Below, piece by piece: positions 2,348 through 45,707 of a stretch of 64,000 bases of DNA. Source of the DNA: Escherichia coli (lineage in GTDB: Bacteria; Pseudomonadota; Gammaproteobacteria; Enterobacterales; Enterobacteriaceae); the NCBI RefSeq assembly GCF_013122565.1, contig NZ_CP053258.1. One strand, 5' to 3'. The notes beneath the pieces were generated by a model. It was not told the DNA's origin, did no database searches, and worked only from the letters and a program-made list of their open reading frames with translations. Both the position numbers and the translations under genes were made by a program. Numbering within the stretch: position 1 is the stretch's first letter; each line of letters begins with the position of its first letter.

Positions 2348-2449
2348 GTGGGTGTTGTGTTTAAGGCCGGGGAAGACTACGAAAGCCCCTAACTTAAACA
2401 CAATATTACGCCAGAAGTCACCATTTCCAAAACACAGCGCCGCTGTACC

Positions 2450-2683
2450 GTGGGTTATCTGCCCAACCGCAGCGACACGCCGGTGATCAAAATCAGCGCC
2501 AAATGGCTGAGAGAAGCGGGATTTGCGATCGGCACGGGCGTTACCGTGAGGATCTCGGAAGGCTGCCTGATCCTGCTTGCGGATAACAACGAAGTACAGG
2601 AACTGCGCAGGGAACTTTATCAGGTTAAACAGTCAGTTAAGGGGATGCGTGACGGGATGTTTAGTGTGCTGAACGAGAGTTAA
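2450..2683 (+). pseudogene. SymE-like (AbrB-fold type I toxin family) gene lacking an ATG start; possible GTG start at 2450
   Basis: Translation ...VIKISAKWLREAGFAIGTGVTVRISEGCLILLAD resembles the SymE C-terminal core; in-frame stop at 2396 and no ATG upstream. Confidence 0.5.
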
Positions 2684-2690
2684 ATAATAA

Positions 2691-2724
2691 AAAGCCGGGA
2701 AGATTTTATTTCCTACCCGGCTTT
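2691..2724. terminator. bidirectional hairpin between convergent SymE-like gene and immunity gene
   Basis: aaagccggg ... cccggcttt inverted repeat flanked by A and T runs. Confidence 0.45.
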
Positions 2725-2729
2725 TAACA

Positions 2730-3179
2730 TTAATGCTTCAAGGGGAATGACTTCATCAGTAATTCTTCTAAAGAAGAATATAAAAATTCCATTTCATAAG
2801 AGTCATGCAGAAAAACAAATATCTTACCATCTGTATTCATAAGAATAGGGTTTCCGCAGCCATCATCTGAAATAGCATAAAATGAATTCAATATATTTTT
2901 ATCAAGATCTTTATATATTTCCCTAAACTTCAGAGTAAGATCAACTACAGAAGCCTTTCCTACTAAGGAACCATTTTTAAAGGCATGTATAGCTATGCCA
3001 CCAAAGGCCCCACCAAATTTCTTAATAAACTCAATATATTGTATATTGAATTTAATATTTAATATTTTTTCAGCCTGAATGATCTCCTCATCAGAAGCTG
3101 GTATACCATATAGGACCATATCTTGGTCAGATGTTATCTCATCTCTGACTCTTGCTAGCAATTCTTCATTCATACGCAA
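2730..3179 (-). CDS. putative immunity protein (SMI1/KNR4, SUKH-like) for orphan rhs module 4
   Basis: 149 aa AT-rich ORF directly downstream of and overlapping the rhs tip; SUKH-like pattern. Confidence 0.55.
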   Translation of the reverse strand: MRMNEELLARVRDEITSDQDMVLYGIPASDEEIIQAEKILNIKFNIQYIEFIKKFGGAFGGIAIHAFKNGSLVGKASVVDLTLKFREIYKDLDKNILNSFYAISDDGCGNPILMNTDGKIFVFLHDSYEMEFLYSSLEELLMKSFPLKH

Positions 3180-4297
3180 CCGCCCCCTCTATTGCTTAAA
3201 ACTTTTTCAGCTTGTGATTTCCAGAATTCTTTTTTCCACAGGTTAAATTCTTGACGATTATTTATACCTGAACCTTTTTTATTTCCATTTGGGTGCTGAC
3301 CAGCGTTATTTGTACTTGAACCATGATGTTTATCTGGCATAGCAGTAATTGGCCCTTGTGATTGCTGCCTGTCATGGTGCAATACTATTACATTCCCTTG
3401 CCTATCGCTCGGAGATAAACCAAATGGATGAGGAGCATCATCACTGTTCATAAAAATAATTCTATTAAGCTCGGAATCACTTAAGTGACTTAAATCCGTG
3501 TAACCTGATACATCTAAAGTTAATCCTCTGCTATCAGTAAAAGTAACAGTTAAACCCAGAGGATCGATCCAACTTATTGGATTAGGCGCATATTGGTATA
3601 AGTTTATCCCACCCGCCAGCCCTATCGGGTCCTGACTGATAAACCTCCCGCACTCCGGCGCATAATACCTGAACAGATTGTAATGCAGTCCCGTCTCTTC
3701 ATCATAATACTGCCCCGGCAGCCGCAGCGGTTGCTCAAAGTACGCCCCGCTGTTGCTGATGTCGCCCCGGTTTTCACCAAATCCCGCCTGATAGCCCGCC
3801 CACACCAGCGTCCCGTCCGCCGCGGTCACCTCCTGTACCGTGCCCGTCAGGTCCGTGTGGTAATACCAGATTTTTTGACTCTCTCCGCGCCCGGTGATGG
3901 CGGCCACCGGCGTGTACGGCTGTTCCGCGTCGTACAGGTATGTCCGCTTTCCCTGCCACGTTGTCTCCTGCAACAGCCGGAACCCTTCCCACACAAACGT
4001 TGTCCGGCTTCGTTCTCCCCGGTCGGTATGGAGATTGCTGGTCGCCTTGCTGATGCGCCTGCCCAGCGCATCATACTGATACCGCGTCTCGCTGTTGCTG
4101 CTGATGACCCGCGTTAACTGACCCTGCGCGTTCCACTCCAGCTGTTGGTCCCTGCGCTCTGTCAGTTCGCCCCATTCGTTATAGCGGTAACGGTCACGCC
4201 CGTAGCCCGGCAGGCGGTTATCCGGCACCGCTCCCTGATGCTCATCCGTCAGCAGGTTGCCCGCTTTGTCGTAATAATAATGGTCATGGTCGTACAT
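3170..4297 (-). CDS. orphan Rhs C-terminal fragment 4: core repeat, DPLGL, His-rich HNH-like tip
   Basis: About 0.75 kb near-identical to the 3' core of the main rhs (homology to ~4335), then a divergent tip with VLHHDRQQSQGP...KHHG; no N-terminus of its own. Confidence 0.7.
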   Translation of the reverse strand: MYDHDHYYYDKAGNLLTDEHQGAVPDNRLPGYGRDRYRYNEWGELTERRDQQLEWNAQGQLTRVISSNSETRYQYDALGRRISKATSNLHTDRGERSRTTFVWEGFRLLQETTWQGKRTYLYDAEQPYTPVAAITGRGESQKIWYYHTDLTGTVQEVTAADGTLVWAGYQAGFGENRGDISNSGAYFEQPLRLPGQYYDEETGLHYNLFRYYAPECGRFISQDPIGLAGGINLYQYAPNPISWIDPLGLTVTFTDSRGLTLDVSGYTDLSHLSDSELNRIIFMNSDDAPHPFGLSPSDRQGNVIVLHHDRQQSQGPITAMPDKHHGSSTNNAGQHPNGNKKGSGINNRQEFNLWKKEFWKSQAEKVLSNRGGGCV

Positions 4298-4376
4298 CTG
4301 CCCCGTGCGACTGGTCAGCCAGCCGCTGCGATCATACGCAAAATGCCCCCATCCGCATGCAAGCAGTATTTATCCT

Positions 4377-4682: not shown

Positions 4683-4698
4683 ATATCATTTCCTGTCT

Positions 4699-7340: not shown

Positions 7341-7359
7341 ATATTTCCCCTTAAATAAA

Positions 7360-8914: not shown

Positions 8915-8922
8915 ATAATAAA

Positions 8923-8955: not shown

Positions 8956-8975
8956 CCACAACAATTTTAACTTAA

Positions 8976-9464: not shown

Positions 9465-9473
9465 ATTACCACC

Positions 9474-28179: not shown

Positions 28180-28187
28180 GAAGACTC

Positions 28188-31524: not shown

Positions 31525-31527
31525 AAT

Positions 31528-32061: not shown

Positions 32062-32087
32062 TGTAATTTCCTTTAAACTCAAATAAT

Positions 32088-32120
32088 AAAAACCGGCCTG
32101 GCTATTTGCCGGGCCGGAAA
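32088..32120 (-). terminator. hairpin plus U-run downstream of hcp (terminator or attenuator)
   Basis: ccggcc ... ggccgg stem followed by ttttt on the transcribed strand, between hcp stop and tssJ start. Confidence 0.4.
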
Positions 32121-32128
32121 AGTACTGC

Positions 32129-32614: not shown

Positions 32615-32831
32615 TTTCATTTCCTTATTAAGAATTACTTAAAATAATCTCTGGTTTATCTTCGCATCTGAATTCAGGTAAACCATAGCCGTACAGAACC
32701 TCCTCTCCTTAATTTAAGAAGAACAGAAGGCTCTATATTTTTCAGAACTTAAGTACCAGACAGAAAATCATTCACGAAATAAATGTTTATCAATTATATA
32801 TAGTTAACTGATAACATATTCTACTGGACTT

Positions 32832-33287
32832 TCATTCACATATTAAAGATACGGGTTTCTCCCTTGGTGGTTCATCGAAATAAAGAGTCTTACAGGAATG
32901 AGTATTTACAGGTACTGGCTGAGATAACCAGACCAGTCCGTAGCTATAAATACAGGAAAACCAGTATCTGTCGCTCTCTTTCGCTGTCGCGCCTTCTGTA
33001 TTCCATATCAACCATGTTTCCTGTTTTATTTTTTTCATCTCTGGCTTCTGATCGCCAAAATTTTCCGGTTTATCCTGTGTGACACTAATATGCGTTAACC
33101 ACTGACGAGGCTCCTGCCGTGGGGAAACTCTCCATTGCGGCTGGACAAATGATTTCAGAACCGCGGTGTAAGGCTCCGTTTCAACAAAAACAGGACAAGT
33201 AACTTCCCATGCCGACACATTTTGTGCATAAAACAAGGCAACACCAGAAAGAAGCAATACAGGAAAGCGCATCATCGTACCTTCCAT
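32832..33287 (-). CDS. putative secreted immunity protein (Tai-like)
   Basis: 151 aa with signal peptide, directly downstream of the amidase-like gene. Confidence 0.5.
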   Translation of the reverse strand: MEGTMMRFPVLLLSGVALFYAQNVSAWEVTCPVFVETEPYTAVLKSFVQPQWRVSPRQEPRQWLTHISVTQDKPENFGDQKPEMKKIKQETWLIWNTEGATAKESDRYWFSCIYSYGLVWLSQPVPVNTHSCKTLYFDEPPREKPVSLICE

Positions 33288-33670
33288 TATTCAATTACAT
33301 AAAATGCTTCAGCATTACTGCTGGCGCTGGGATACGAACCGTCAGAGTTTGCTCCGCCTTTCGGTCTGAGTTGATGTTTTTCGATTCTGATCTGCGTTCT
33401 CCACTGATCCATAACCCAGATCCCTCGTTTATCCTGCCCCAGATAGAATGCAGCATGATTACCTGAACTCCTGCCAGGCCATCGCCCATTAAAAAAAGTG
33501 GCAATAGCGGTACCTTTTGGAATGGTGGTGTCCCCCCACACTTTCTTACCCGCACGCCATGTTGCTGTGGAGCCAAGATGTGCATACCTTTTAACCAGAG
33601 TTACACACTCACCATCCCCCACTAATGGCTGCCCCTGTAATAAATCCACTGATTCATAAACTCGCGACAT
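33287..33670 (-). CDS. putative Cys/His papain-fold peptidoglycan amidase effector (Tae-like)
   Basis: 127 aa; candidate catalytic Cys (GECVTLVKRY) and His (NHAAFY) about 60 residues apart; sits between tssC and hcp where SPI-6-type islands carry tae/tai. Confidence 0.5.
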   Translation of the reverse strand: MSRVYESVDLLQGQPLVGDGECVTLVKRYAHLGSTATWRAGKKVWGDTTIPKGTAIATFFNGRWPGRSSGNHAAFYLGQDKRGIWVMDQWRTQIRIEKHQLRPKGGANSDGSYPSASSNAEAFYVIE

Positions 33671-33709
33671 GTTATTGCCCTCTGATGTTACGCAGAATCC
33701 TTAGATGTA

Positions 33710-35224
33710 TCAGGCATTACCCTGTTTTACCGACGGCAGTTTTGTGACCAGACGCAGTGATCCTGTTAACCCTTCAAGCTGAAAATGCGGGCGCAGGAAG
33801 AATTTGGCATCGTAATAACCCGGATTACCTTCCACCTCTTCCACCACCACTTCGGCTGCTGCTAGTGGGCGACGAGCTTTGGTTTCCTGTGAGGAGTTCA
33901 CCGGATCGGCATCGACGTAGTTCATGATCCACTCATTGAGCCAGCGCTGCATATCTTCACGCTCTTTGAACGAGCCGATCTTGTCGCGCACGATACATTT
34001 GAGGAAGTGCGCAAACCGTGAACAGGCGAAAAGATATGGCAAACGAGCTGAGAGATTAGCGTTGGCCGTAGCGTCCGGATCGTAATATTCCTGCGGTTTT
34101 TGCAGCGACTGTGCGCCAATAAAGGCGGCATAATCGGAGTTTTTGCGGTGGATCAGCGGGATAAAACCGTTTTTGGCCAGTTCAGCTTCACGGCGATCAG
34201 AGATGGCAATTTCCGTCGGGCATTTCATATCCACGCCGCCGTCATCGGTCGGGAAGGTATGACAGGGTAGATTTTCCACCGCGCCACCAGATTCAACACC
34301 ACGGATCAACGTACACCAACCGTAATGTTTGAAAGAACGGTTGATATTTACACCCATTGCATAGGCGGCATTGCTCCAGACATATTTGCTGTGATCTGCG
34401 CCATCCGCATCTTCTTCAAAATCAAACTCATCTACAGGGTTTGTTTTCGCACCATAAGGCAAACGGGAGAGGAAACGTGGCATCGTCAGGCCAATGTAGC
34501 GAGAATCCTCACTTTTCCGCAGCGAGTTCCACGGTGCGTATTCGAGGTTTTGGGTCACAATTTTGGTCAAATCACGCGGGTTAGCCAGTTCCTGCCAGGA
34601 GTCCATCTGCAACACTGACGGAGAGGCCCCGGCAATAAACGGCGCATGGGCTGAGGCTGCTACTTTGGCAATGGAACCGAGCAGATCCACATCCGGTGGC
34701 GTGTGATCAAAATAATAATCCGCAATAATACAACCGTAAGGTTCTCCACCTAACTGTCCATATTCAGCTTCATACAGCTTTTTGAACATGGGGCTTTGAT
34801 CCCAGGCTATCCCTTTGTAACGTTTCATATTTTTCCGCAATTCATCCTTCGAAAGGTTCATAAAGCGGATTTTTAATTTTTCATCGGTTTCAGTGTTGTA
34901 AACCAAATGTTCCATCCCACGCCAGGAGGACTCCAGTTTCTGAAATTCCGGATGACTCAGGATGAGTTTGATCTGCTCGGTTAATTTGAAATCAATCTGC
35001 TCAATAATCGCAGCAATACTTTTATAAGCGTCGTCACTGACGGTGACGGTATTTGTCAGAGCCTGTTGGGCCAGCGTCTGAACTGCTGCCTCAACAGCCT
35101 TTGCTGCCTGAGGTGTCTTGGGACGGAAGGCTTTATCCAGGAGCGAATCAAATTCAGTGTCCTGATAGGCAGTGGTTTGCGCAGCAGAGAGATCGCCAGT
35201 CGCCAGAAGAGTATCGTTTACCAT
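33710..35224 (-). CDS. tssC: T6SS sheath large subunit TssC (VipB)
   Basis: 504 aa; conserved TssC sequence. Confidence 0.92.
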   Translation of the reverse strand: MVNDTLLATGDLSAAQTTAYQDTEFDSLLDKAFRPKTPQAAKAVEAAVQTLAQQALTNTVTVSDDAYKSIAAIIEQIDFKLTEQIKLILSHPEFQKLESSWRGMEHLVYNTETDEKLKIRFMNLSKDELRKNMKRYKGIAWDQSPMFKKLYEAEYGQLGGEPYGCIIADYYFDHTPPDVDLLGSIAKVAASAHAPFIAGASPSVLQMDSWQELANPRDLTKIVTQNLEYAPWNSLRKSEDSRYIGLTMPRFLSRLPYGAKTNPVDEFDFEEDADGADHSKYVWSNAAYAMGVNINRSFKHYGWCTLIRGVESGGAVENLPCHTFPTDDGGVDMKCPTEIAISDRREAELAKNGFIPLIHRKNSDYAAFIGAQSLQKPQEYYDPDATANANLSARLPYLFACSRFAHFLKCIVRDKIGSFKEREDMQRWLNEWIMNYVDADPVNSSQETKARRPLAAAEVVVEEVEGNPGYYDAKFFLRPHFQLEGLTGSLRLVTKLPSVKQGNA

Positions 35225-35248
35225 GAAAGTTCCTTAATAAAATCGCAG

Positions 35249-35794
35249 TTAGTCTGCTGTTCCCGTTTCACCTGATAAGACACTTTCCTGTTGAGCGACA
35301 GGTTTTGGCGCACTGGCCAGAGCTTTCAGTAACGTAGGGTCTTGTAATAGTTTGTTGATAAGATTTTCTGCTCCCGCTTTACCATCCATATACGTTTGTA
35401 GGTTGGCAAGCTGAGTACGCGCTTCCAGCAGCTGGTTCAGGGCATCCACCTTACGGGCAATCTGCGCAGGCGAAAAATCGTCCATATTCTCCAGCGTGAT
35501 ATCGACCATTAACTGCCCTTCGCCCGTCAGCGTATTGGGGACAGCAAACGCCACGCGCGGCGCAATGGCTTTCATCCGCTCGTTGAAGTTATCGATATCA
35601 ATATCAAGGAATTTACGATCGGTGACCGGTGGCAGCTCTTCGCGAGGTTTACCGGCCAGATCGGCCAGCACCGCCATGACAAACGGCAGTTCGATTTTTT
35701 TCTCGGAGCCGTAAATCTCAACGTCATACTCAATCTGCACGCGGGGCGCACGGTTGCGGGCAATAAACTTCTGCGCGCTATTGTTGATAGCCAT
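35249..35794 (-). CDS. tssB: T6SS sheath small subunit TssB (VipA)
   Basis: 181 aa; ...APRVQIEYDVEIYGSEKKIELPFVMAVLADL typical of TssB. Confidence 0.92.
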   Translation of the reverse strand: MAINNSAQKFIARNRAPRVQIEYDVEIYGSEKKIELPFVMAVLADLAGKPREELPPVTDRKFLDIDIDNFNERMKAIAPRVAFAVPNTLTGEGQLMVDITLENMDDFSPAQIARKVDALNQLLEARTQLANLQTYMDGKAGAENLINKLLQDPTLLKALASAPKPVAQQESVLSGETGTAD

Positions 35795-35855
35795 AATCCT
35801 TCATTTCCTTATCAGTCAGCCGACGACCACCTGGGGAGTGGCCCGACGGTACAGT

Positions 35856-36146
35856 TTAAAAATCATACGCAGAGAGTATTTTTATAATCTCTTTGTTTTC
35901 TTTGTACTTTTCCCGCAGCACAGGGAGTGATTTCTTCGCTGGAGGACACCAGGTATCAACCCCCTTTTCGATGTCTCTTTTATCCTTCTCTGGTAAAGAA
36001 CTGTCCCATTCACCAGCAAGATGCTGGCACATTTCCGCATTACTCAGAAAATGCTGCACATCCTGTGGTAAAGACGGTTCCCCCTGAGCACAGAAAGCGA
36101 ACATCATTAACAGGAATGTCCACAACACCGGATAACGAAATGTCAT
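35856..36146 (-). CDS. small secreted protein of unknown function
   Basis: 96 aa with signal peptide; between clpV and tssB. Confidence 0.4.
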   Translation of the reverse strand: MTFRYPVLWTFLLMMFAFCAQGEPSLPQDVQHFLSNAEMCQHLAGEWDSSLPEKDKRDIEKGVDTWCPPAKKSLPVLREKYKENKEIIKILSAYDF

Positions 36147-36364
36147 ACTTAATGTCCATCAATTGACCAGTGCATGAGATATGCTCTAGCGGGAGGGCGA
36201 TATGTTGCAGAGATACTGACCCTTGCACGCGCATTACCAAGCGCGCGCAAAAAATTATCTACCGATACACGAAAAGTCCCCTGCAAATCATTGGTGGAAG
36301 AACTTCCAGGAAAGCGACTGACCCACAGCGCGCCACTTAATTCTTTTTCCATAAGGATGCTCCA

Positions 36365-38998
36365 TTAATCCGTTTCAAAAATAATCTGTTCATCCTCATC
36401 AACACGAATGCGGATTTGCGTGATGGCCGTTTTCTCTGTCATCGCCTGCAACCAGTAACGGGACAGTTGTGGGAGGATATGTTGTTCGATATAGCCGATG
36501 AGCAAACGAGCGCCGGTTTCGTGCATCGGGCAGCGCGACACAATATGCGTAATCAATTCATCGCCATACACCAGTGAAACGCCATGCTGCTCCGCCATCC
36601 GATCCATCAATCTGCCAAGATGCAGGCGGGCAATAACACCACGCGCGGTCTCATCCAGCGGTAAATAAGGAATAACCGTCACACGCCCCAGGAAAGCCGC
36701 CGGGAAGTGTTTACGTAACTCCGGCATTAACGCCTCTTTTAATCCTGCCGAATCAGGCATCAGCGCCGGATCCTCACAGAGCTGGCTGATAAGTTCCGCT
36801 CCCGCGTTAGTAGTCAACAACAGCGTGGTATTTTTGAAATCGATGTGGACACCTTCGCCATCTTCCATCGCCCCCTTATCAAACACCTGGAAGAACAGCT
36901 CGTGGACGTCGTGATGGGCTTTTTCAATTTCATCCAGCAATACCACGCTCCAGGGATGGCGGCGTACCGCTTCTGTCAACACGCCGCCTTCGCCATAACC
37001 CACGTAGCCGGGCGGTGCGCCTTTCAGCGTGGAAACGGTGTGGGACTCCTGAAACTCGCTCATGTTGATGGTGATCAGGTTCTGCTCACCGCCATAGATA
37101 GCCTCTGCCAGCGCCAGAGCGGTCTCAGTCTTGCCAACACCGGACGGCCCGGCCAGCAAAAAGACGCCCACAGGCTTACGCGGGTCACCTAAACCCGCCC
37201 GCGCGGTCTGGATACGCTCGCCAATCTGCGCCAGCGCGTCCCTCTGCCCGGTAACACGCTGCGCCAGACGGGCGGGCAGTTCCAGGATCTGACTGGCCTC
37301 ATCTTTCACCATGCGTCCGGCGGGAATACCGGTCCAGTCGGAGACAATCTCTGCCACCACGGTTGCACTGACTTCCGGGTACACGACGGGGTTTTCACCC
37401 TGCCAACCTCTTAATGCCGTTTCTGCCTGTTGTAGAGTGATTTCGTCGCGCTCGCCGGGCTCTGCGCCGCGTTGCTCGTGTAAACTGCGAACCAACTCCA
37501 GTTCCTGCTGCCACCGCGCTTCGGTGTCAGAAAGATCGGCATTCAGCGATATAATCCGCGCCGCCAGTACATCGCCCCGCTCCGAGCGGATACCCATTTT
37601 TTCCTGCTTTAATAACAACTCCTGCTCCAGTTCGGCAGCGTTGAGCTGCTGGCGCAGATACTGGACTCTCGCAGGCGGGGTATGCAGCGACAGCGCTACA
37701 CGGGCCGCCGCCGTATCCAGCAGGCTGATGGCCTTATCCGGTAGTTGCCGGGACGGAATGTACCGGTGAGAAAGCTGTACCGCGGCGCGCACGGCCTCAT
37801 CAAGGATCAGGACGTCATGGTGTTTTTCAAGCGTGGTGACTAACCCGCGTACCATCTCAACAGCCGCAACCTCTTCTGGCTCAGCAACCTGCAATACCTG
37901 AAAACGCCGGGTCAGCGCCGGATCCTTTTCGATATGGCGTTTGTACTCGCTCCAGGTAGTTGCGCCGATGGTGCGCAGGGTTCCACGCGCCAGCGCCGGT
38001 TTCAGCAGGTTGGCAGCATCCCCCGTACCGGATGTACCACCAGCGCCCACCAGCGTGTGAACTTCATCAACAAAAAGGATCACCGGCTGCGGCGAGCGCG
38101 CGGCCTCTTCCAACAACGCTTTCAGGCGGGATTCAAATTCACCCTTCATGGACGCCCCTGCCAGCAGCGCTCCAACATCCAGTGACAGCAACCGCACGTT
38201 ACGCAGTGAAGGCGGTACTTCCCCCCCGGCAATCGCCAGCGCGAATCCTTCCACCACTGCCGTTTTCCCGACTCCCGCCTCGCCGGTCAGCAGCGGGTTG
38301 TTCTGGCGACGGCGCAGCAGAATATCCGTCATAGTACGGATCTCGTGTTCGCGACCGGTGACCGGATCGATATTGCCTTCACGGGCCAGCGCAGTCATGT
38401 CCTGGCAGTATTTCGCCAGCGCGGATTTGCTTCCGGTTGATTCGCCGGCAAAGACCTGGCTAGCTTCCCCCGGTACTGCAGAATTTAAATCCGAGCCGTC
38501 ATAAGGCATTTCTGTTAATTCAGGAGATGAAGTGATTAAAGACGGAAGAATATCTAATAGTTCATCTACCGGTAGCTCTGCCAATGGCGCACAAATATTT
38601 TTTAACACCCGACACAATTCTGGCGTGGTTAACCAGGCAAGTAATAACCATCCACTACGAATTTTTTGATCGCCAAAGCGGATACTTGCCAACATCCAGG
38701 CTTTTTCAACAGAAAGATCGATATGATGGGAAAAATCGTTAATTACACTCGCTCCGGCAGGCAATATATTCAATTGCTGAATTAACGCCTTCTCAACATC
38801 AGCAGATGTTATTTGATAATGTCGAAGCACATTGTGAATGTCATTCTCTGGTTGTTGTATTAACTGATGCAACCAATGTGTCAGTTCGACATAAGGATTA
38901 GCGCGTAATTTACAGAACGTTGTCGCAGATTCCAAAGATCTAAACAAAGATTTGGTTAGCTTTCCATATAGTGCACTGCGCGAAACAGGAGTGTCCAT
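36365..38998 (-). CDS. clpV: T6SS AAA+ ATPase ClpV (TssH)
   Basis: 877 aa; two Walker A motifs (GEAGVGKTAVVEG, GPSGVGKTETA); Clp N-domain. Confidence 0.92.
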   Translation of the reverse strand: MDTPVSRSALYGKLTKSLFRSLESATTFCKLRANPYVELTHWLHQLIQQPENDIHNVLRHYQITSADVEKALIQQLNILPAGASVINDFSHHIDLSVEKAWMLASIRFGDQKIRSGWLLLAWLTTPELCRVLKNICAPLAELPVDELLDILPSLITSSPELTEMPYDGSDLNSAVPGEASQVFAGESTGSKSALAKYCQDMTALAREGNIDPVTGREHEIRTMTDILLRRRQNNPLLTGEAGVGKTAVVEGFALAIAGGEVPPSLRNVRLLSLDVGALLAGASMKGEFESRLKALLEEAARSPQPVILFVDEVHTLVGAGGTSGTGDAANLLKPALARGTLRTIGATTWSEYKRHIEKDPALTRRFQVLQVAEPEEVAAVEMVRGLVTTLEKHHDVLILDEAVRAAVQLSHRYIPSRQLPDKAISLLDTAAARVALSLHTPPARVQYLRQQLNAAELEQELLLKQEKMGIRSERGDVLAARIISLNADLSDTEARWQQELELVRSLHEQRGAEPGERDEITLQQAETALRGWQGENPVVYPEVSATVVAEIVSDWTGIPAGRMVKDEASQILELPARLAQRVTGQRDALAQIGERIQTARAGLGDPRKPVGVFLLAGPSGVGKTETALALAEAIYGGEQNLITINMSEFQESHTVSTLKGAPPGYVGYGEGGVLTEAVRRHPWSVVLLDEIEKAHHDVHELFFQVFDKGAMEDGEGVHIDFKNTTLLLTTNAGAELISQLCEDPALMPDSAGLKEALMPELRKHFPAAFLGRVTVIPYLPLDETARGVIARLHLGRLMDRMAEQHGVSLVYGDELITHIVSRCPMHETGARLLIGYIEQHILPQLSRYWLQAMTEKTAITQIRIRVDEDEQIIFETD

Positions 38999-39330: not shown

Positions 39331-40245
39331 ATGAAACAAAATATTACGTGGGGACTCCAAAAAAAACAGGCGCACGGGATCGCCGATAACACAATTTACG
39401 CGACTGAAGGAACACAAATTATCTTTACCGTTACCTCTCCCTGGATTCCTGTTTTTGAGGTGAATGATGATGTAAAGATTGCCCTCAGTCTGACCCGCCA
39501 CGAAGAAGCATGGTGGATTATTAATCAGTCTACCGAATATTGCTGTACGGTAAACGACCAGATTGTGGAACCTCATCACCGTATGCGTCTGAATGAAGGC
39601 GATCAGATAGAATGGGGGTTATCTTCATGGTGCCTTGTGCATGGCACCCCATCATCTCCGGACATGAGCGCAGTAAAAACAATATCGCAGACTGCCATCA
39701 CGTCGGAAACAATAACCGAATATCTGGATCTGGATTGGTTCAGGCAGCAGCATCTGACATCACAAAATCCATTCGATATCATTCCTGTTCATGGAGCCTC
39801 CTCCACCGGAGAAGATGCGGAAAAAGAAAATGCCCTGACCCGACTTTATCAGGAATACCGCGAGGCGTTGTTATCTCCCGAAGAAGATCTTCATCGCCAT
39901 GCTGATCCTTTTCCCTTTAACGAAGAGCCCTCCTCGCAGGATCTGGATTCATTGCGTGACCTGGTCACCGAAGCCGATACATTGCAGGATATGGTCACTG
40001 GTGGGTTAAGCATTGACGCTATTCTCAATGTACTGGATGCCACCGGCGAAGATGAAACTATCTGGCCTGTCGAAAAGACTCCCCCTGATATCCTGCATTT
40101 ACTTTCCCCGGAATACGCCCCGGAAACAGCGCATAACACCGTACTGCCAGATCTGACACGCAAAGAGCACCGCATTATCGGCATTGACAGCCATTACCGG
40201 ATAAACCCGGCACAACACGGAGATATCTCTCATGACAAACAATAA
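39331..40245 (+). CDS. FHA-domain T6SS-associated protein (TagH-like)
   Basis: 304 aa; N-terminal FHA-like signature (SLTRHEEAWWIIN, STEYCCTVNDQ, RLNEGDQIEWG); first gene of the + operon. Confidence 0.55.
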   Translation: MKQNITWGLQKKQAHGIADNTIYATEGTQIIFTVTSPWIPVFEVNDDVKIALSLTRHEEAWWIINQSTEYCCTVNDQIVEPHHRMRLNEGDQIEWGLSSWCLVHGTPSSPDMSAVKTISQTAITSETITEYLDLDWFRQQHLTSQNPFDIIPVHGASSTGEDAEKENALTRLYQEYREALLSPEEDLHRHADPFPFNEEPSSQDLDSLRDLVTEADTLQDMVTGGLSIDAILNVLDATGEDETIWPVEKTPPDILHLLSPEYAPETAHNTVLPDLTRKEHRIIGIDSHYRINPAQHGDISHDKQ

Positions 40246-41062
40246 CGTGCTACCGGCTACCCTGTCGGCGCTGCTGCGGGATTATTCCGTGGCGGAGGGC
40301 ATTCAGATGGCAGAGCAGCAGGTCAGGATGCACCCAGCGCAGGCCTCCCGCCGCCACAGCCTGTTTCAGTTACTGTGCGTGGCAGGCGACTGGTCGCGGG
40401 CGCTGCAACAGATCCAGCTGTGCGACCGGATGGACGCAAATTATACCCGCGAAGCGCAGGTATTTGGCGAGCTGATCCGCTGTGAGATATACCGCCACGC
40501 CTGCTTTCAGGGGGAACAGCGGCCCGGTTTTATTCTCCCGCCGCCCGCCTGGATGGAGGATCTACTGGCTGCTCTCGCCTGTAACGCCCGTAGTGAAGCG
40601 CAGGAAGCTGATGTCCACCGCAGCCGCGCGCTTGAGGCCATAACAGACACTTCTGGGCAGTGGAATGGCGGCGCGTTTGACTGGATTAGCGACAGCGACT
40701 CCCGTACCGGTCCGGTACTCGAACTGATCGCAGGCGGGGTGTATATCTGGCTGCCATTCTCACAAATTCGCTCACTGAAATCGCCGCAGCCTGCGCATCT
40801 GACCGATTTGCTCTGGAAACCCGTCAACGTCACCCTGCACAACGGTGACACGCACAGTGCCTGGCTGTTTCCCCGCTACAGCGGCTCTGAAAAGGCCGCC
40901 GACTCCCTGCGTCTGTGCCGGGAAACGGTCTGGCAGGACGGGCCGGGAGAGACGCTGGTACAGGCGCTGGGTCAGAGGGTGTGGCTCACCAGCCAGGGCG
41001 ATATCAGCCTGCTGGATTTGTCCACCTGTACCTTTAATACCTCCGAAGGAAGCGACGCGTGA
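40232..41062 (+). CDS. tagJ: T6SS accessory protein TagJ (ImpE family)
   Basis: 276 aa; position between FHA gene and tssE; ImpE-like. Confidence 0.65.
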   Translation: MTNNNVLPATLSALLRDYSVAEGIQMAEQQVRMHPAQASRRHSLFQLLCVAGDWSRALQQIQLCDRMDANYTREAQVFGELIRCEIYRHACFQGEQRPGFILPPPAWMEDLLAALACNARSEAQEADVHRSRALEAITDTSGQWNGGAFDWISDSDSRTGPVLELIAGGVYIWLPFSQIRSLKSPQPAHLTDLLWKPVNVTLHNGDTHSAWLFPRYSGSEKAADSLRLCRETVWQDGPGETLVQALGQRVWLTSQGDISLLDLSTCTFNTSEGSDA

Positions 41063-41553
41063 GCACCTCCCGCCAGCGTCCGGGCAGCCACCTGCTGCCC
41101 ACACTGTTTGACCGTCTGTGCGATGACGCCCCAGACCAGAAGCGCGACCACGATATCAGCGTCAGCCCGGTTCAGCTTAAGGAGATCATCCGCCGGGACT
41201 TGTCGTTTCTGCTCAACACCGTCAGCCATGAAGATGATATTGATGCCGCACGTTACCCACACGCGGCAGCATCTGTACTGAACTACGGCCTGCCGCCACT
41301 GGCGGGCAGCTTTCTGTATGAACACAAGTGGGACGATATCCGCAGGGCCATTTTGCGTACCATCACCCGGTTTGAACCCCGGCTGAAAGCGTCCACCCTG
41401 CAAATCATCCCACTTCAGGATGAGCGCCGCCAGAGTGGCCATAACACATTACAGTTTGAAATTCGCGGCGAGATCCTCACGCAGCCTTACCCGACGGCAT
41501 TCCGGGTACGCAGCGCGCTGGATATGGAACAAAGCCGCATTACGTTTTTTTAA
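41059..41553 (+). CDS. tssE: T6SS baseplate protein TssE (gp25-like)
   Basis: 164 aa; conserved TssE N-terminal region (LLPTLFDRL, DLSFLLNT). Confidence 0.85.
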   Translation: MSTSRQRPGSHLLPTLFDRLCDDAPDQKRDHDISVSPVQLKEIIRRDLSFLLNTVSHEDDIDAARYPHAAASVLNYGLPPLAGSFLYEHKWDDIRRAILRTITRFEPRLKASTLQIIPLQDERRQSGHNTLQFEIRGEILTQPYPTAFRVRSALDMEQSRITFF

Positions 41554-41568
41554 TTCAGAGAGAAACCG

Positions 41569-43452
41569 ATGGATCCACGGCTACTGGAATACTACAACCG
41601 CGAACTGAGCTATCTGCGGGAAACGGGAGCCGAATTTGCCGCCCGTCATCCCAAAGTCGCCGCCCGGCTGGGCATGCAGGGAACGGATATTGCCGATCCG
41701 TATGTGGAGCGGATGGTCGAAGCCTTCAGCTTCCTGACCGCCCGCACGCAGCTAAAAATTGACGCTGAATTCCCTCGTTTCACCCAGCGCCTGCTGGAAG
41801 TGGTCAGCCCCAATTACGTCACACCCACGCCCTCAATGAGCGTGGCGCAGTTGCATCCCGATACGGAAGAAGGCGATCTGGCAAAAGGATTTACCGTCCC
41901 GCGCGACACGGCCTTTTTCTCCGCCATTCCGGAAGGCGAAAGCACTGCCTGCCAGTTTCGCAGCAGCCAGGATGTAACGCTGTGGCCGCTCGCCATCGAA
42001 GAGGCGCGACTGACCGCCGCGCCGCCGGATATGCCTGCCCTGCACCGCTACCTGCCGGCCAACATTCACGTCGCCGGGGCGCTGCGTATTACCCTGCGCA
42101 CCTTTGGTGAACTAACGTTCAGTCAGCTTGCCGGACTGGACAGGCTGCCGTTTTATCTCTGCGGCGAGGAGCGTACGGCCTCACACCTGTTCGAACTTCT
42201 ACATACCAGCGCCATCGCGACCCTGGCTGGCATTCCGGGACATTTTGACGGCGCGTTGGATGTGAATCTGCAACAGCCCGTTATGTACGAAGGCCTGGAG
42301 CCGGATCAGGGGCTGCTGCCGCTGGCGTGGAACGTGTTTCACGGTCATAACCTGCTGCATGAATATTTTGCCTGTCCGGAACGCTTCTATTTTTTCACCC
42401 CGACAGGCCTGTCTGCCGGATTACAGAAAATTGACGGTGGCGTGGCGGAGATTGTTATCCTGCTGAACCGCCTGCCGCCGGACTGGCTGATCCACCAGAC
42501 AAATACGGCACAGTTCAGCCTGTTCTGTACCCCGGTTATCAACCTGTTTCCCCGCGTCACCGCCCGGATCGATGTCACGCACAGCACGACGGAACAGCAT
42601 CTGGTGGTGGACAGAACCCATCCGCTGGATTATGAGGTGTTCTCGGTCCAGGAAGTGGAAGGGCTGGAAACCGACACCACACGGAAGATGGCCTTTCGCC
42701 CGCTCTACCACACCCGCAATAACGATGAAGGCAATCACGGGCGTTATTTTTCCCTGCGCCGGGAGCCGCGCCGCTTATCAGAAAACGCCCGCCGTTACGG
42801 TACCCGTACTCCCTATACGGGATCAGAAGTGTTCCTGTCGCTGGTTGACCAGTATGAAGCGCCGTACCCGGAAAATCTGCGCCACATCACCATCACGGCC
42901 ATGATCACTAACCGCGATCTGCCCTGTCTTATTGCCCGCAATGGCCGGGACGATCTAACCGTGGATGCGGCCATCCCGGTGGCGGGCGTAGGGCTTATCC
43001 GCCCGCCACGCTCGCCGCAGCCCCCGCTGGCTGAACGTGAGATGGCATGGCGGTTGATCCGCCAGTTATCTTTTAATTATCTGCCGCTGGCCGATCTGGA
43101 TCACCGTACCGGCGGCCAGGCGTTGCGAGATCTGCTGAACCTGTTTATTCCTGCTCATGACAGTCCGCAATCGCGCCAGGTGCGCAGCCTGATTGGTTGT
43201 AAAACGACCCCGGTCACCCGCCGTCTGCCCGGTTCCGGACTACTGGTCTATGGGCGTGGCGTCAGTTGTGAACTGACGGTGGATGAAGAAGGTTTTTCCG
43301 GCATCAGTCCGTATCTGTTCGGCCTGGTGCTGGAACACTATATCGCCCGCCATGTTTCCATTAATACCTTCTCGCAGATGACGCTGCACAGCATGCAGCG
43401 TGGCAAAATTATGACCTGGCCTGTCAGGGCGGGACAGCGGGGAAGCGTATGA
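41569..43452 (+). CDS. tssF: T6SS baseplate protein TssF
   Basis: 627 aa; N-terminus MDPRLLEYYNRELSYLRETGAEFAARHPKVAARLG typical of TssF. Confidence 0.9.
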   Translation: MDPRLLEYYNRELSYLRETGAEFAARHPKVAARLGMQGTDIADPYVERMVEAFSFLTARTQLKIDAEFPRFTQRLLEVVSPNYVTPTPSMSVAQLHPDTEEGDLAKGFTVPRDTAFFSAIPEGESTACQFRSSQDVTLWPLAIEEARLTAAPPDMPALHRYLPANIHVAGALRITLRTFGELTFSQLAGLDRLPFYLCGEERTASHLFELLHTSAIATLAGIPGHFDGALDVNLQQPVMYEGLEPDQGLLPLAWNVFHGHNLLHEYFACPERFYFFTPTGLSAGLQKIDGGVAEIVILLNRLPPDWLIHQTNTAQFSLFCTPVINLFPRVTARIDVTHSTTEQHLVVDRTHPLDYEVFSVQEVEGLETDTTRKMAFRPLYHTRNNDEGNHGRYFSLRREPRRLSENARRYGTRTPYTGSEVFLSLVDQYEAPYPENLRHITITAMITNRDLPCLIARNGRDDLTVDAAIPVAGVGLIRPPRSPQPPLAEREMAWRLIRQLSFNYLPLADLDHRTGGQALRDLLNLFIPAHDSPQSRQVRSLIGCKTTPVTRRLPGSGLLVYGRGVSCELTVDEEGFSGISPYLFGLVLEHYIARHVSINTFSQMTLHSMQRGKIMTWPVRAGQRGSV

Positions 43453-44444
43453 GCAACGATTTCACTCAGGCGCAGGAAACCCCCTGGCGTTACGGTTTTC
43501 TGAACCTGATGCGCCGCGTTGATGTGCAGTTGTGTACCGTTCCGGCGGACAACACCTGGCAACCACGGATGGAAAAATTTCGCCTCGGACAAACGCCCAC
43601 GCTGACCTTTGCGCCACGGGAAATCGCCAGTGTGAGCTGGCAGGAAGGACGCCTGCATATCAGCCTGTACAGTCTCGGGCTGTGGGGGCCGAACGGTCCG
43701 TTGCCGCTGCACTACACCGAACTGGCGCGCAACCGGACCGAAAGCCGACGCGATCCGACGCTGACCCGTTTTTCCGATCTTTTTCATCACCGCTGGCTGA
43801 CGCAGTTTTACCAGGCATGGCGCAGCGCCCAGTCAGCCGGGGGCGGTCTGGATAAACCGCAGCATGACCGCTTTGCCTTTTATATCGCCAGCCTCAGCGG
43901 GCAGGATTTAAGGGAGAGCGCCGACAGCCCGTTGCCGGATCACGTTCGCCTGGCGGCATCGGCGCATCTGGTGCGTGAGTCCCGCAATCCGGACGGTCTG
44001 GCCGCCACGCTGGCGCACTATTTTGGCGTACCTTTCCGGATACAGGAGTATGTCCTGCACTGGATAGCCGTGGCGGAGGATGAGATCACCCGGCTGGGGA
44101 TGCCTGCCCCCTCTTCCGTTATTGGCAATGGTGCACTCATCGGCCAGGCCGTGCCGGACATGCAGTATAAGTTCCGGCTGGTTATCGGCCCGCTGACGCT
44201 GGAGGATTACCGACGTTTTCTGCCTGGCGGCAATAACCTGCCCGTCCTGACAGAACTGGTCCGCGCCTTTAGTGGTTTTGAATACTGCTGGGAAATTGAG
44301 CTACAACTAAAGCCCCACGCCGCCCCTCCGGCTGTTACCGGTGGTCCGTACCAACTGGGTTGGACCGCATGGGCGGGTAAAGCCATGCACGACAACCCGG
44401 TGACGGGCATGATTTTCGAACCAGAACACTACCTGGCGCACTGA
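43449..44444 (+). CDS. tssG: T6SS baseplate protein TssG
   Basis: 331 aa; overlaps tssF stop; typical TssG. Confidence 0.85.
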   Translation: MSNDFTQAQETPWRYGFLNLMRRVDVQLCTVPADNTWQPRMEKFRLGQTPTLTFAPREIASVSWQEGRLHISLYSLGLWGPNGPLPLHYTELARNRTESRRDPTLTRFSDLFHHRWLTQFYQAWRSAQSAGGGLDKPQHDRFAFYIASLSGQDLRESADSPLPDHVRLAASAHLVRESRNPDGLAATLAHYFGVPFRIQEYVLHWIAVAEDEITRLGMPAPSSVIGNGALIGQAVPDMQYKFRLVIGPLTLEDYRRFLPGGNNLPVLTELVRAFSGFEYCWEIELQLKPHAAPPAVTGGPYQLGWTAWAGKAMHDNPVTGMIFEPEHYLAH

Positions 44445-44454
44445 GGATAATTAA

Positions 44455-45501
44455 ATGGAAATATTCCTGTCTGACCCAATTTCGGCGGAATGTCCCTGCG
44501 GCCCGGATCTGGAGTACGATCCGGAATACCTGCTACTGTTCACTCGCGCCGCACCGCGTGAAGAAGCGCAATACGGCGATTTTGTCAGTACGCCGGAAAC
44601 CATTAACTGGGCGGAGCTTGAGCGGGACGCCCATCGTCTGCTGATGCGCAGCAAAGATATCCGCATTCTGGTTGTCCTGCTGCGCTGCCGTATCCAGCAG
44701 GCCGGCGCACAGGGACTGGCAGACGCGCTCGCGTTGCTGGAAACGTTGTGCGCCACGTACCCGGACGCCATCCATCCGCAACTGCTCGCGACTGAAGATA
44801 TCACCGCCGAAGAGGCGGCAGTGGCACGTAGTAACGCGCTGGCGGCGTTGCTGGACCACGAAGGAGTAATGGCGGATATTCGTGGCATTACACTGTCAAA
44901 TAATGTCGCCATGTGCCTTCAGGTTCGCGATGTGGAGCGTTCGCTGTCAGCATCACGCCCGGCGGATGCGCTGGCACCGGAATCAGTACGCCAGCAACTG
45001 GCCGACCTGGAAGCGCGCGGCACATTGCCGCTGGATGCCTTTCGCCAGGCCGCAGAGACCACTGAACGGCTGCAACGCCATGCGCGTGAAACGCTGAATG
45101 ACCAGGCACCGGACTTCTCCCGTCTGACGCAACTGCTGGCCCTGTTACCGGGAGCAGTGCAGAGCACCACGCCGGAGATCCTGCCACAACCACAGGCTGA
45201 ACAGCCGGAGAATGCCACCATCGATAATACTGAAAAGATGCAGGCAGAGCAGATTGCGCTAGCGGTGCATATCGCGGAGGAAATATCACCGATATCCGGC
45301 GCAGAACCTCGGCAGATCCGCGACCGGAACGATGCGCTGGAACGCCTGCGTGTCATCCGTCGCTGGTTTGAGCACAGCGAACCGAGCAGCCCGACCATTC
45401 CTTTGCTGCTCCAGGCAGAACGCCTGGTCGGAAAACGCTTCTCTGAGGTAATAAATGAAATTCCAGTAGAACTGCTGGAGAAATGGGATGCGCTGGAGTA
45501 A
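44455..45501 (+). CDS. tssA: TssA-family protein (ImpA N-terminal domain)
   Basis: 348 aa; N-terminal PISAECPCGPDLEYDPEY motif. Confidence 0.75.
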   Translation: MEIFLSDPISAECPCGPDLEYDPEYLLLFTRAAPREEAQYGDFVSTPETINWAELERDAHRLLMRSKDIRILVVLLRCRIQQAGAQGLADALALLETLCATYPDAIHPQLLATEDITAEEAAVARSNALAALLDHEGVMADIRGITLSNNVAMCLQVRDVERSLSASRPADALAPESVRQQLADLEARGTLPLDAFRQAAETTERLQRHARETLNDQAPDFSRLTQLLALLPGAVQSTTPEILPQPQAEQPENATIDNTEKMQAEQIALAVHIAEEISPISGAEPRQIRDRNDALERLRVIRRWFEHSEPSSPTIPLLLQAERLVGKRFSEVINEIPVELLEKWDALE

Positions 45502-45593
45502 CAGAAGTGGTCAGAATTTATAATGTCTGGCCATTTTTAAATCATATCGTTTTACTTCCGGAGTGAAAAATTCTCACTTCACCAAAACGACGA

Positions 45594-45625
45594 AAGCCCG
45601 AATCATTGCTGATTCGGGCTTTCTG
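45594..45625 (-). terminator. intrinsic terminator downstream of aspV
   Basis: aagcccgaatc ... gattcgggctt hairpin followed by U-run on the tRNA strand. Confidence 0.6.
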
Positions 45626-45630
45626 AATAT

Positions 45631-45707
45631 TGGCGGAACGGACGGGACTCGAACCCGCGACCCCCTGCGTGACAGGCAGGTATTCTAACCGACTGAACTA
45701 CCGCTCC
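45631..45707 (-). tRNA. aspV: tRNA-Asp (GUC)
   Basis: Exact 77 nt match to the E. coli tRNA-Asp sequence including CCA (reverse complement). Confidence 0.97.

Follow-up and report, generated by a model that had tools for sequence, protein, structure and literature searches.

Organization of the yafV–aspV interval

The window, a 64,000-nucleotide stretch of the Escherichia coli contig NZ_CP053258.1, carries an interval of 43,283 bp (2348–45630) between yafV and aspV, a tRNA-Asp gene whose 3' end faces the island. The interval is a complete, intact SPI-6-type T6SS cluster with a long array of exchangeable toxin/antidote cassettes, and its position 3' of a tRNA gene is a classical PAI feature. 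The border and structural features are:

1568–2347, +: yafV (ORF)
16031–16474, −: EagR/DcrB-family chaperone (Pfam DcrB, E=2.4e-35)
16498–18711, −: vgrG (tssI), full length (profile match)
23256–32620, −: tagF, tssM, two small ORFs, tssL, tssK, tssJ and hcp (profiles and a relative's annotation)
33710–38998, −: tssC, tssB, a 96-aa ORF and tssH (clpV) (profile matches)
39331–45501, +: tagK, tagJ (ImpE), tssE, tssF, tssG and tssA (profile matches)
45585–45707, −: feature that includes the aspV terminator hairpin (45592–45623)
45631–45707, −: tRNA-Asp(GTC), aspV

TssA, TssB, TssC, TssE, TssF, TssG, TssH, TssJ, TssK, TssL and TssM, together with Hcp (TssD) and VgrG (TssI), were all found by Pfam and NCBIfam profiles as full-length ORFs with near-complete profile coverage, TssL being the long form with an OmpA domain. 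The prePAAR_I and PAAR_motif domains of an Rhs protein provide a PAAR spike, and effectors are accompanied by cognate immunity genes (glucosaminidase/Tgi2PP and SUKH genes). With 13 of the 13 core genes intact and Hcp, VgrG and PAAR-Rhs present, the original prediction of a complete T6SS plus cargo in about 43 kb between yafV and tRNA-Asp is confirmed. T6SS structural genes make a contractile injection machine, whose spike (VgrG and PAAR-Rhs, with EagR-assisted loading) and tube (Hcp) carry toxins into neighbouring bacteria, whereas small adjoining AT-rich genes shield the toxin producer. Judged on TssK alone, the island would bear no close likeness to E. coli T6SS-1 (EAEC Sci-1 type), the window protein matching the EAEC-type chains 5m30 and 6giy at E=4e-23 and another TssK, 5y0e, at 7e-83. 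A "tRNA-His" called by ARAGORN within tssF (43235–43328) lacks Rfam support and was discarded.

The cargo comprises four orphan rhs-toxin/immunity modules and three more effector/immunity pairs; a putative pair adjoins hcp. Outside the rhs genes, the features are:

18736–19122, −: imm1, partner of eff1
19119–19820, −: eff1, with an HExxH motif
20819–21181, −: imm2, partner of eff2
21178–21984, −: eff2, paralog of eff1 (39% identity)
22312–22773, −: Tgi2PP-family immunity gene, paired with the glucosaminidase (profile match)
22758–23228, −: glucosaminidase effector, Tge-like (profile match)
32832–33287, −: STY0301-family protein, putative immunity (profile match)
33287–33670, −: BPSL0067-family protein, putative effector (profile match)

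The BPSL0067-family protein is presumably an amidase-like, cell-wall-degrading enzyme. With its STY0301-family partner it occupies the position of variable region 1 in the SPI-6 scheme (PMC11669294). The HExxH proteins eff1 and eff2 may be metallopeptidases. Searches of Pfam (even at E≤10), of NCBIfam and PADLOC, and of PDB sequences returned no match to them; an AlphaFold model from a 7-sequence alignment had a pLDDT of 64 (below 50 in the HExxH region), a Foldseek search against the PDB returned nothing below E=0.2, and neither protein could be given a fold. Together, eff1 and eff2 might represent an HExxH effector family of this system that has yet to be described.

The rhs array and its neighbours occupy the yafV side of the island:

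2450–2683, +: symE-like ORF, 77 aa (Pfam SymE_toxin, E=1.4e-11; SymE family in relatives' annotation)
2730–3179, −: SUKH/SMI1_KNR4 immunity gene of orphan rhs module 4 (2730–4297)
3170–4297, −: rhs 3' fragment of module 4, with an LHH nuclease tip
4377–4682, −: immunity candidate of module 3 (4377–6315), 101 aa
4699–6315, −: rhs fragment of module 3, toxin tip without family assignment
6489–7340, −: LRR immunity candidate of module 2 (6489–8820)
7360–8820, −: rhs fragment of module 2, internally deleted, its tip weakly GIY-YIG-like
8724–8934, +: second symE-like copy, 5'-truncated, 95% identical to 2493–2702
8976–9464, −: SUKH immunity gene of module 1 (8976–11312)
9474–11312, −: rhs fragment of module 1, with a Tox-SHH (HNH/EndoVII) tip
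11518–11877, −: immunity candidate of the full-length PAAR-Rhs
11871–16010, −: full-length PAAR-Rhs effector, with prePAAR and a deaminase-like C-terminal tip (profiles)

At its N-terminus, the PAAR-Rhs protein matches Salmonella Rhs1 as present in 6xrr, a structure of Rhs1-EagR. The truncated copies share the core DNA of this main gene (92–97% identical among internal copies), each with a distinct tip that follows a PxxxxDPxGL motif and with an AT-rich immunity gene beside it. The predicted contrast between AT-rich immunity genes and a GC-rich rhs core was recovered on measurement, with GC contents of 0.29–0.34 in the immunity genes, 0.35–0.42 in the toxin tips and 0.58–0.61 in the core. The 375-aa ORF at 3170–4297 was considered as an ISAs1 transposase, which relatives have after yafV, and proved to be an rhs orphan.

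Rhs orphan biology has been described (PMC7043789), and known arrays (Salmonella Typhimurium rhs-orphan; E. coli Rhs with H-repeat/ISAs1) likewise consist of a full-length rhs followed by 5'-truncated copies, each with its own tip and immunity gene, in association, as in the window, with ISAs1-family "H-repeat" sequences. With four tandem orphans, the present array lies towards the upper end in number, though its kind is not unusual; it differs in the internal core deletion of one orphan and in the truncated symE-like gene embedded between orphans 1 and 2, which probably marks an earlier end of an rhs tail.

Relation to SPI-6 and to other states of the locus

In Salmonella enterica CP034712, SPI-6 is arranged as tssC-tssB-tssH / tagK-tagJ-tssE-tssF-tssG-tssA – tRNA-Asp – dnaQ, collinear with the window over the part compared, from tssC to tssA. 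Protein identities between the two range from 55 to 92% (TssF 91.5%, TssG 85%, TssH 85%, TssE 79%, TssA 71% and TagK 55%). The variable regions published for SPI-6 lie as in the window, one around hcp, one between tagF and vgrG, and one following vgrG, the last with eagR, PAAR-Rhs and orphan rhs; the VR1–3 effector scheme and multiple tssI-eagR-rhs modules have been described for that island (PMC11669294). The assignment to the SPI-6 type is based on collinearity beside aspV, which concerns the right-hand half, on core orthology, and on the tssI-eagR-PAAR-rhs module with VR1–3. The window differs from SPI-6 in its host, E. coli, where the type is rare (76/5426), in an interval devoid of saf/tcf fimbrial operons, and in its effector set, which combines the glucosaminidase and the two HExxH proteins with four orphan rhs modules and with a vgrG fragment that ends at an ISAs1 relic. 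In addition, the tssA–aspV spacer is 129 bp in the window, where the integrase-leader remnant is absent, and about 320 bp in Salmonella.

Comparison of the interval across genomes, as the original prediction had proposed, revealed several states rather than a uniform one: among 5426 complete E. coli genomes, 76 (1.4%) have the window type, 808 an empty site and 4047 a T6SS-2/K-12-type (yafT-type) junction. T6SS islands at aspV have been described in E. coli (PMC8715443, PMC2941450, PMC5363993), the T6SS-2 island being represented by the 37-kb aspV island of EDL933, LF82 PAI I, the APEC O1/ECC-1470 variants and the K-12 stump yafT-ykfM-yafU-yafF. It resembles the window island in occupying the same yafV–aspV interval, in having an rhs arm and, at the yafV border, an ISAs1 relic, as well as in having no described integrase or att. 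It differs in gene order, with tagH, vasI and vasL present, and its junction with the chromosome lies 7 bp from the tRNA, where it takes the place of the aspV terminator, whereas the window island retains the terminator found in empty sites. Core proteins of the window and of the O157 T6SS-2 island share only 26–42% amino-acid identity, which sets the window island apart from E. coli T6SS-2. Because there is one locus for both, the two islands cannot co-occur; mutual exclusion has been reported for two T6SS-2 variants (PMC8715443). The K-12 interval is indeed short, only 2.4 kb, as originally stated, but the remnant in it comes from T6SS-2, another T6SS family: over its first 1.06 kb from aspV, K-12 matches the aspV-proximal end of the O157 T6SS-2-type island at 99% identity, and yafT, ykfM and yafU have no homolog in the window. 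The IAI39 empty-site spacer, searched against the comparison loci for signs that empty sites are deletions, gave no match.

Borders, mobility genes and displaced fragments

Across the interval, no ORF matched integrase or transposase families in Pfam or NCBIfam, and the largest stretch lacking an assigned feature, 332 bp, leaves no space for a hidden gene. The earlier claim that integrase and transposase are missing therefore holds for intact genes but not for relics, since ISAs1 remains are present both at the border with yafV and at the junction of a vgrG fragment (vgrG'). The search for att sites (25-mer and 18-mer at up to 3 mismatches; word-7 blastn of aspV with 150 bp on each side) covered degenerate repeats and retrieved no copy of the tRNA 3' end in the window except a second tRNA-Asp gene, aspU (53855–53931), in agreement with the direct repeat having been reported absent. 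Thus, neither the tyrosine integrase beside the tRNA nor the far-border repeat of an integrase-borne tRNA island was found. The 10-mer ACGAAAGCCC, present at 2379–2388 and 45590–45599, was considered as a border repeat and treated as coincidence: on the left it falls within an ISAs1 terminus common to K-12 and other strains, and on the right it is the aspV terminator stem, present in empty sites too. Homology to K-12 on the yafV side stops at 2373, and in empty-site genomes homology to the window starts again at 45585, on the aspV side of the island.

In Salmonella, SPI-6 adjoins aspV and SPI-20 lies at aspV without obvious direct repeats; uneven GC is reported for SPI-19, SPI-20 as well as SPI-21, with neither uneven GC nor missing repeats reported for SPI-6 itself (PMC2907695). 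Three Salmonella assemblies with the island have a P4-type integrase Arm-domain fragment 275 bp from aspV, of which tblastn (E≤10) detected no trace in the window or in the Escherichia loci. As some Salmonella copies have kept this fragment, the absence of mobility genes from the window island is more likely due to decay than to an original lack.

Several fragments lie out of place:

2374–2389, +: ISAs1/ISEc1 terminus relic, 16 bp, AAGACTACGAAAGCCC, at the left edge of the island
19880–19923: tagF 3' end fragment, 44 bp
19924–20021: ISAs1/ISEc1 terminal relic, 98 bp, with the last 28 transposase codons, equivalent to K-12 yafF
20022–20794, −: vgrG', codons 1–253 only, ending at the IS relic
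22181–22294: displaced copy of the tagF 3' end, 114 bp, 88.6% identical to 23270–23382

The vgrG' fragment shares 90.6% identity with the 5' part of the intact vgrG, and its junction with the IS relic is common to 33 genomes. The 44-bp tagF scar indicates that the eff1-vgrG-rhs tail formerly came after a tagF, and the partial tagF, vgrG and rhs copies would mark cassette replacement. One end of an ISAs1-family IS is all that is present, as the 16-bp and 98-bp relics; relatives have ISEc1 or IS256 at the yafV border, ISEc1 being intact in some.

Origin and diversification of the island

The same T6SS cluster, in the same orientation and with tssA as the tRNA-proximal gene beside aspV-dnaQ, was found in Escherichia sp. 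E1V33, Escherichia sp. MOD1-EC7003 and "E. coli" E69, and also in Salmonella enterica CP034712 and Citrobacter farmeri. A search of genome contigs with TssA yielded 7 loci, Salmonella not among them; the Salmonella and Citrobacter contexts came from a protein search and contig look-up, and the yafV-side boundary was compared within E. coli only. The tssA–aspV spacer is homologous across Escherichia species, and the inter-genus nucleotide identity of tssF/tssG (82–84%) falls within that of the flanking dnaQ..mltD genes (79–89%). The SPI-6-type island has thus probably resided at yafV–aspV since before the split of Escherichia, Salmonella and, at least, Citrobacter farmeri, and is no longer self-mobile; within this explanation, we infer activity, the direction and order of events, and an ancestral rather than repeated occupancy of aspV. 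An ancient origin had been proposed from the absence of mobility genes, which was a weak basis; the age now rests on comparative evidence, namely synteny across genera and a divergence near that of the flanks. Counting against it, ancestral presence of a type found in just 1.4% of E. coli needs many losses or replacements.

It is unlikely that aspV is instead a hot spot, at which integrases inserted the cluster independently in Escherichia, Salmonella and Citrobacter, recently in a minority of E. coli, with integrase and att since eroded. T6SS families with no relation to one another do occupy the site, both in E. coli (PMC8715443) and, as SPI-6 and SPI-20, in Salmonella (PMC2907695), yet every aspV copy of the present type has identical orientation and the same tRNA-proximal gene, and the spacer homology extends across Escherichia species. 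Citrobacter koseri has the same T6SS type at thrW beside an integrase gene, Citrobacter sp. R56 has it near tRNA-Asn, and in Enterobacter sp. ENT03 no tRNA lies within 10 kb of it, so the cluster has relocated at least sometimes; this thrW integrase and the Salmonella integrase fragment favour insertion, whereas the lack of any att repeat and of any integrase trace by tblastn (E≤10) in the window or Escherichia loci opposes it. Rarity in E. coli would also suit recent arrival, as would the divergence within Escherichia, where T6SS genes are 5–10 points more diverged than the flanks, an excess that import from other lineages fits too, but between genera the core-gene divergence matches that of the housekeeping flanks. 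Capture of the 17.5-kb vgrG-eagR-rhs arm (2390–19923) by ISAs1-family elements as a composite unit, then transposed into a truncated island, is highly improbable: the same ISAs1 end lies in the same orientation on both sides (2374–2389 and 19924–20021), the inner relic abuts the truncated vgrG and a tagF scrap, and relatives have an intact ISEc1 at the yafV border, but the relics are one IS end in direct orientation with no inverted pair, one is just 16 bp, no target-site duplication is visible, the yafV-side relic is also found in K-12 and among islands that lack the arm duplication and is thus older than the event, and the same facts can be explained by one IS-associated deletion or junction with ordinary recombination after it.

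In the favoured explanation of long residence at aspV, the machine would deliver cell-wall-degrading enzymes, HExxH proteins and an Rhs-encapsulated deaminase-like toxin to neighbours. The states of the locus in E. coli (window island, T6SS-2 island or K-12-like stump, and empty site) would be swapped via homologous recombination in the conserved flanks. New effector/immunity cassettes would come together with part of a conserved gene, be it tagF, vgrG or the rhs core, and recombine there, shifting the older copy downstream; the four orphan rhs-toxin/immunity modules, the truncated vgrG and the two tagF 3' fragments would be the residue of such shifts, and an ISAs1-family element, now reduced to end relics, would have created or altered one of these junctions. 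Maintenance by homologous recombination, also proposed originally, is plausible in view of the displaced copies and of the mosaic identity to the nearest E. coli relative, which in 500-bp windows is 92–100% in the island and 98–100% in the flank. Our verdict is that the island is old, immobilised and diversifying via homologous recombination and cassette displacement.

Islands of this kind are already known, E. coli and Salmonella providing documented cases of T6SS at aspV that lack integrase and att, have uneven GC and bear Rhs orphan arrays, and the finding has little import beyond good annotation. Its value lies in the quantified three-state polymorphism at one locus, in the clean record of cassette replacement history provided by the displaced tagF, vgrG and rhs fragments, and in two effector candidates, eff1 and eff2, outside assigned families. 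This lineage has a Salmonella-type weapon in place of the one usual in E. coli, an observation relevant to the recombinational swapping of interbacterial weapons. More tentatively, the SPI-6 type might be the ancestral aspV occupant in the Escherichia-Salmonella-Citrobacter lineage and T6SS-2, dominant in E. coli, a later replacement; if so, the 1.4% of E. coli that carry it would be relics of the original weapon, or re-imports from sister Escherichia species.

Borders and gene content of the island

The window has the gene order fadE'-ivy-yafV, island, aspV-dnaQ-rnhA-yafS-gloB-mltD ... aspU-rrnH-gmhB-metNIQ-rcsF, with flanks that are 98.2% identical to K-12 and up to ~99% identical to other E. 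coli. At the left border, homology to the K-12 flank stops at 2373; at the right, homology to empty-site genomes (e.g. IAI39) restarts at 45585, aspV terminator hairpin included. The island therefore extends over ~2374-45584, that is, 43.2 kb. Among the flank genes, gloB (47856-48611) has 40.5% GC, with neighbours at ~49-52%, and is the most diverged within Escherichia (91-96% nucleotide identity vs 95-98%). All ORFs of the interval were scanned against Pfam, and unexplained ones additionally against NCBIfam and PADLOC.

Features of the island and its surroundings
Ends at 2347: yafV
Adjoining yafV: symE-like ORF
rhs array: four orphan rhs 3' fragments, with tips Tox-SHH, a weak GIY-YIG-like match, one without assignment, and LHH
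Variable arm, from aspV leftwards: glucosaminidase effector and Tgi2PP-type immunity gene, eff2/imm2, vgrG fragment (codons 1-253), eff1/imm1, intact vgrG, EagR/DcrB chaperone, prePAAR-PAAR-Rhs and immunity gene
23256..38998, minus strand: leftwards from aspV, tssH, 96-aa ORF, tssB, tssC, BPSL0067-family/STY0301-family pair, hcp, tssJ, tssK, tssL, two small ORFs, tssM, tagF
39331..45501, plus strand: structural genes tagK, tagJ, tssE, tssF, tssG, tssA
45631..45707, minus strand: tRNA-Asp(GTC), aspV, 3' end towards the island
53855..53931: aspU, second tRNA-Asp, at the rRNA operon end

The original prediction of a complete T6SS plus cargo was borne out: 13 of 13 core components are full-length, unlike in the closest relative, which has internal stops in tssL and tagJ, and they are accompanied by an effector/immunity arm and the rhs orphans (5'-truncated modules). 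TssL is the long form carrying an OmpA domain. The prePAAR-PAAR-Rhs protein has 1379 aa and a deaminase-like tip, and a small immunity-type gene comes after each orphan (SUKH in two cases, LRR in one, and one without assignment). The 96-aa ORF between tssB and tssH (35856-36146) is conserved; its thioredoxin-like (StoA CxxC) match is weak (E=1.2e-6) and falls far short of the family cut-off. A 94-nt “tRNA-His” called by ARAGORN inside tssF (43235-43328), and at the same place in a comparison locus (L008), is a false positive, as Rfam finds no tRNA there.

The effector candidates eff1 (19119-19820) and eff2 (21178-21984) are paralogs with 39% identity and the conserved signature HExGH...D.EY...MNVGxELRxR. 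Small ORFs with a hydrophobic N-terminus come next, 18736-19122 after eff1 and 20819-21181 after eff2 (the candidate immunity genes imm1 and imm2). Neither effector matched Pfam, NCBIfam, PADLOC or PDB sequences, only six word-sharing homologs were found, and a poor AlphaFold model gave no fold match; they possibly represent an uncharacterised metallopeptidase-like T6SS effector family.

Base composition is markedly uneven. The contrast proposed between AT-rich immunity genes and the rhs core was confirmed (GC 0.29-0.34 vs 0.58-0.61), with toxin tips at 0.35-0.42, eff1/eff2 at 0.36, tagF, tssM, tagJ and tssG at 0.60-0.65, and flanking genes at ~0.49-0.55. The same unevenness has been described for Salmonella T6SS islands (PMC2907695).

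Type of the system and states of the locus

The island is an SPI-6-type T6SS at aspV with Rhs orphan arrays, a well-described kind, and public E. coli genomes already have annotations with near-identical gene orders. Collinearity with Salmonella SPI-6 is seen in S. enterica CP034712, which has the order tssC-tssB-tssH/tagK-tagJ-tssE-tssF-tssG-tssA, followed by tRNA-Asp and dnaQ-rnhA-yafS-gloB-mltD, at 55-92% protein identity. The island's three variable regions fit the VR1-3 scheme of SPI-6, Tge2 and multiple tssI-eagR-rhs modules included (PMC11669294), and the N-terminal part of Rhs matches the Rhs1 fragment of Salmonella in the Rhs1-EagR structure 6xrr. In contrast, the aspV island of O157:H7 (T6SS-2 type, with tagH, vasI and a VasL-domain protein) shows only 26-42% amino-acid identity, and TssK similarity to EAEC Sci-1 is weak.

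Junctions were counted among 5426 complete E. coli genomes, a comparison of the yafV-aspV interval that had been proposed with the original prediction, and the interval is not uniform.

Junction states among 5426 complete E. coli genomes
tssA-aspV-dnaQ junction of the window island: 76 genomes (1.4%)
Empty site, yafV, 98 bp, aspV (IAI39 type): 808 genomes (14.9%)
dnaQ-aspV-yafT (T6SS-2 island or K-12 stump): 4047 genomes (74.6%)

The short remnant attributed to K-12 exists, but it is the stump of a different T6SS family, since K-12 yafT, ykfM and yafU have no homolog in the window and its first 1.06 kb past aspV matches the aspV-proximal end of the O157 island at 99% identity. T6SS-2-type islands have their junction 7 bp from the tRNA, and the window island retains the aspV terminator present at empty sites. 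The empty-site genomes differ at the yafV 3' end and contain a ~70-bp spacer (IAI39 locus L006, 19925-20010), which matched none of the island types compared.

Displaced copies and relics of mobility

Partial copies were traced by self-comparison and junction mapping. The rhs orphans and the main gene have 0.8-1.6 kb of rhs core in common (92-97% identity), and every orphan diverges exactly past the PxxxxDPxGL motif. The 5' 773 bp of vgrG, along with some of the immunity gene upstream, is duplicated at 90.6% identity (17939-18977 vs 20022-21060), and the tagF 3' end recurs as two scraps (22181-22294 and 19880-19923), each heading an effector cassette. From these displaced copies, the arm can be read as a tandem of two island “tails”: putatively tagF3'-eff2-imm2-vgrG' ..., cut by an insertion-sequence relic, and tagF3'-eff1-imm1-vgrG-eagR-rhs ... 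symE. The first matches strain LHM10-1 and the second strain 06-00048. The composite junction at the relic is not unique to the window, being found in 33 of the 5426 genomes.

The symE-like ORFs (type I toxin family; 2450-2683 and 8724-8934) are located at rhs tail ends, and relatives have the same “SymE family” gene, with the last rhs immunity gene on one side and the IS at yafV on the other. In the window, the second copy lacks its 5' part and is joined to rhs antisense sequence between orphans 1 and 2, counted from the main rhs gene; this truncated copy suggests that the rhs array is itself a fusion of two tails.

The island had been described as having no integrase, transposase or repeat of the tRNA 3' end. 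No island ORF matches integrase or transposase families in the Pfam scan, the longest stretch without an assigned feature is 332 bp, and a search for degenerate att repeats allowing three mismatches or very short words found no additional copy of the tRNA-Asp 3' part. An ISAs1-family element (ISEc1/ISEc5, “H-repeat”) has, however, left two relics at key junctions. One, of 98 bp (19924-20021), includes the last 28 transposase codons and matches K-12 yafF at 96.6% identity and ISAs1-family transposase genes of >2500 genomes at 95-97%; the other, of 16 bp (2374-2389), is the same ISAs1/ISEc1 terminus directly after the yafV flank, a position at which the relic is longer, or ISEc1 intact, in K-12 and several relatives. 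IS256 or ISAs1 copies are found at the yafV border of relatives with the island. Given these relics and copies, “without mobility genes” holds for intact genes only. Loss of mobility functions by decay is more probable than their absence from the outset.

The 17.5-kb vgrG-eagR-rhs arm lies between the two relics, which present the same terminus and are oriented alike; the inner one adjoins the truncated vgrG and the 44-bp tagF scrap. A 10-mer, ACGAAAGCCC, occurs at both borders (2379-2388 and 45590-45599); it is probably a chance repeat, with the left copy inside the ISAs1 terminus and the right one in the aspV terminator stem.

Age, relocation and possible exchange

Representatives of three separate species, Escherichia sp. 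E1V33, Escherichia sp. MOD1-EC7003 and “E. coli” E69, have the same cluster, with tssA adjoining aspV-dnaQ in the same orientation, and so do further Escherichia assemblies, S. enterica and Citrobacter farmeri. Between genera, tssF/tssG show 82-84% nucleotide identity vs 79-89% for five flanking genes, and the tssA-aspV spacer is homologous within Escherichia. This conserved placement, flank-like divergence and homologous spacer fit a long residence at aspV.

Several observations run counter to great age. Within Escherichia, divergence of the T6SS genes exceeds that of the flanks by 5-10 points, and this T6SS type is rare in E. coli. Clusters of the same type also occupy other sites. The one in Citrobacter sp. 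R56 lies near tRNA-Asn, and the one in Enterobacter sp. ENT03 has neither a tRNA within 10 kb nor the dnaQ-side flank genes. In C. koseri (L022, 6001-9337), the T6SS is at another tRNA locus, where it adjoins a 224-aa integrase-family gene and tRNA-Thr (thrW)-proA-proB. In three Salmonella assemblies, an Arm-domain fragment of a P4-type integrase (116 aa, Pfam E=3.8e-20) lies between tssA and aspV, 275 bp from the latter (L019, 11720-12070, minus strand), and typical SPI-6 keeps the leader region of that fragment. The T6SS alleles of these three assemblies are Escherichia-like (tssE 96% nucleotide identity to the window vs 76% for typical Salmonella), which hints at possible exchange between genera.

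Compared with LHM10-1 (97.4% identity overall), the island swings between 92-94% and 99-100% identity in 500-bp windows, whereas the dnaQ-mltD flank is uniform at 98-100%. This mosaic identity and the partial duplications favour homologous recombination as the likely working mode of change. The proposal of an ancient island maintained by homologous recombination was right in its main conclusions, given synteny, flank-like divergence and mosaic identity, with rarity and relocated copies as counter-indications. The insertion-sequence relics, the probable decay of mobility and the different family of the K-12 remnant are the points that need correcting; the first observation holds, and its interpretation is correct in the main, the island being old, immobile and recombination-driven, with foreign AT-rich cargo.
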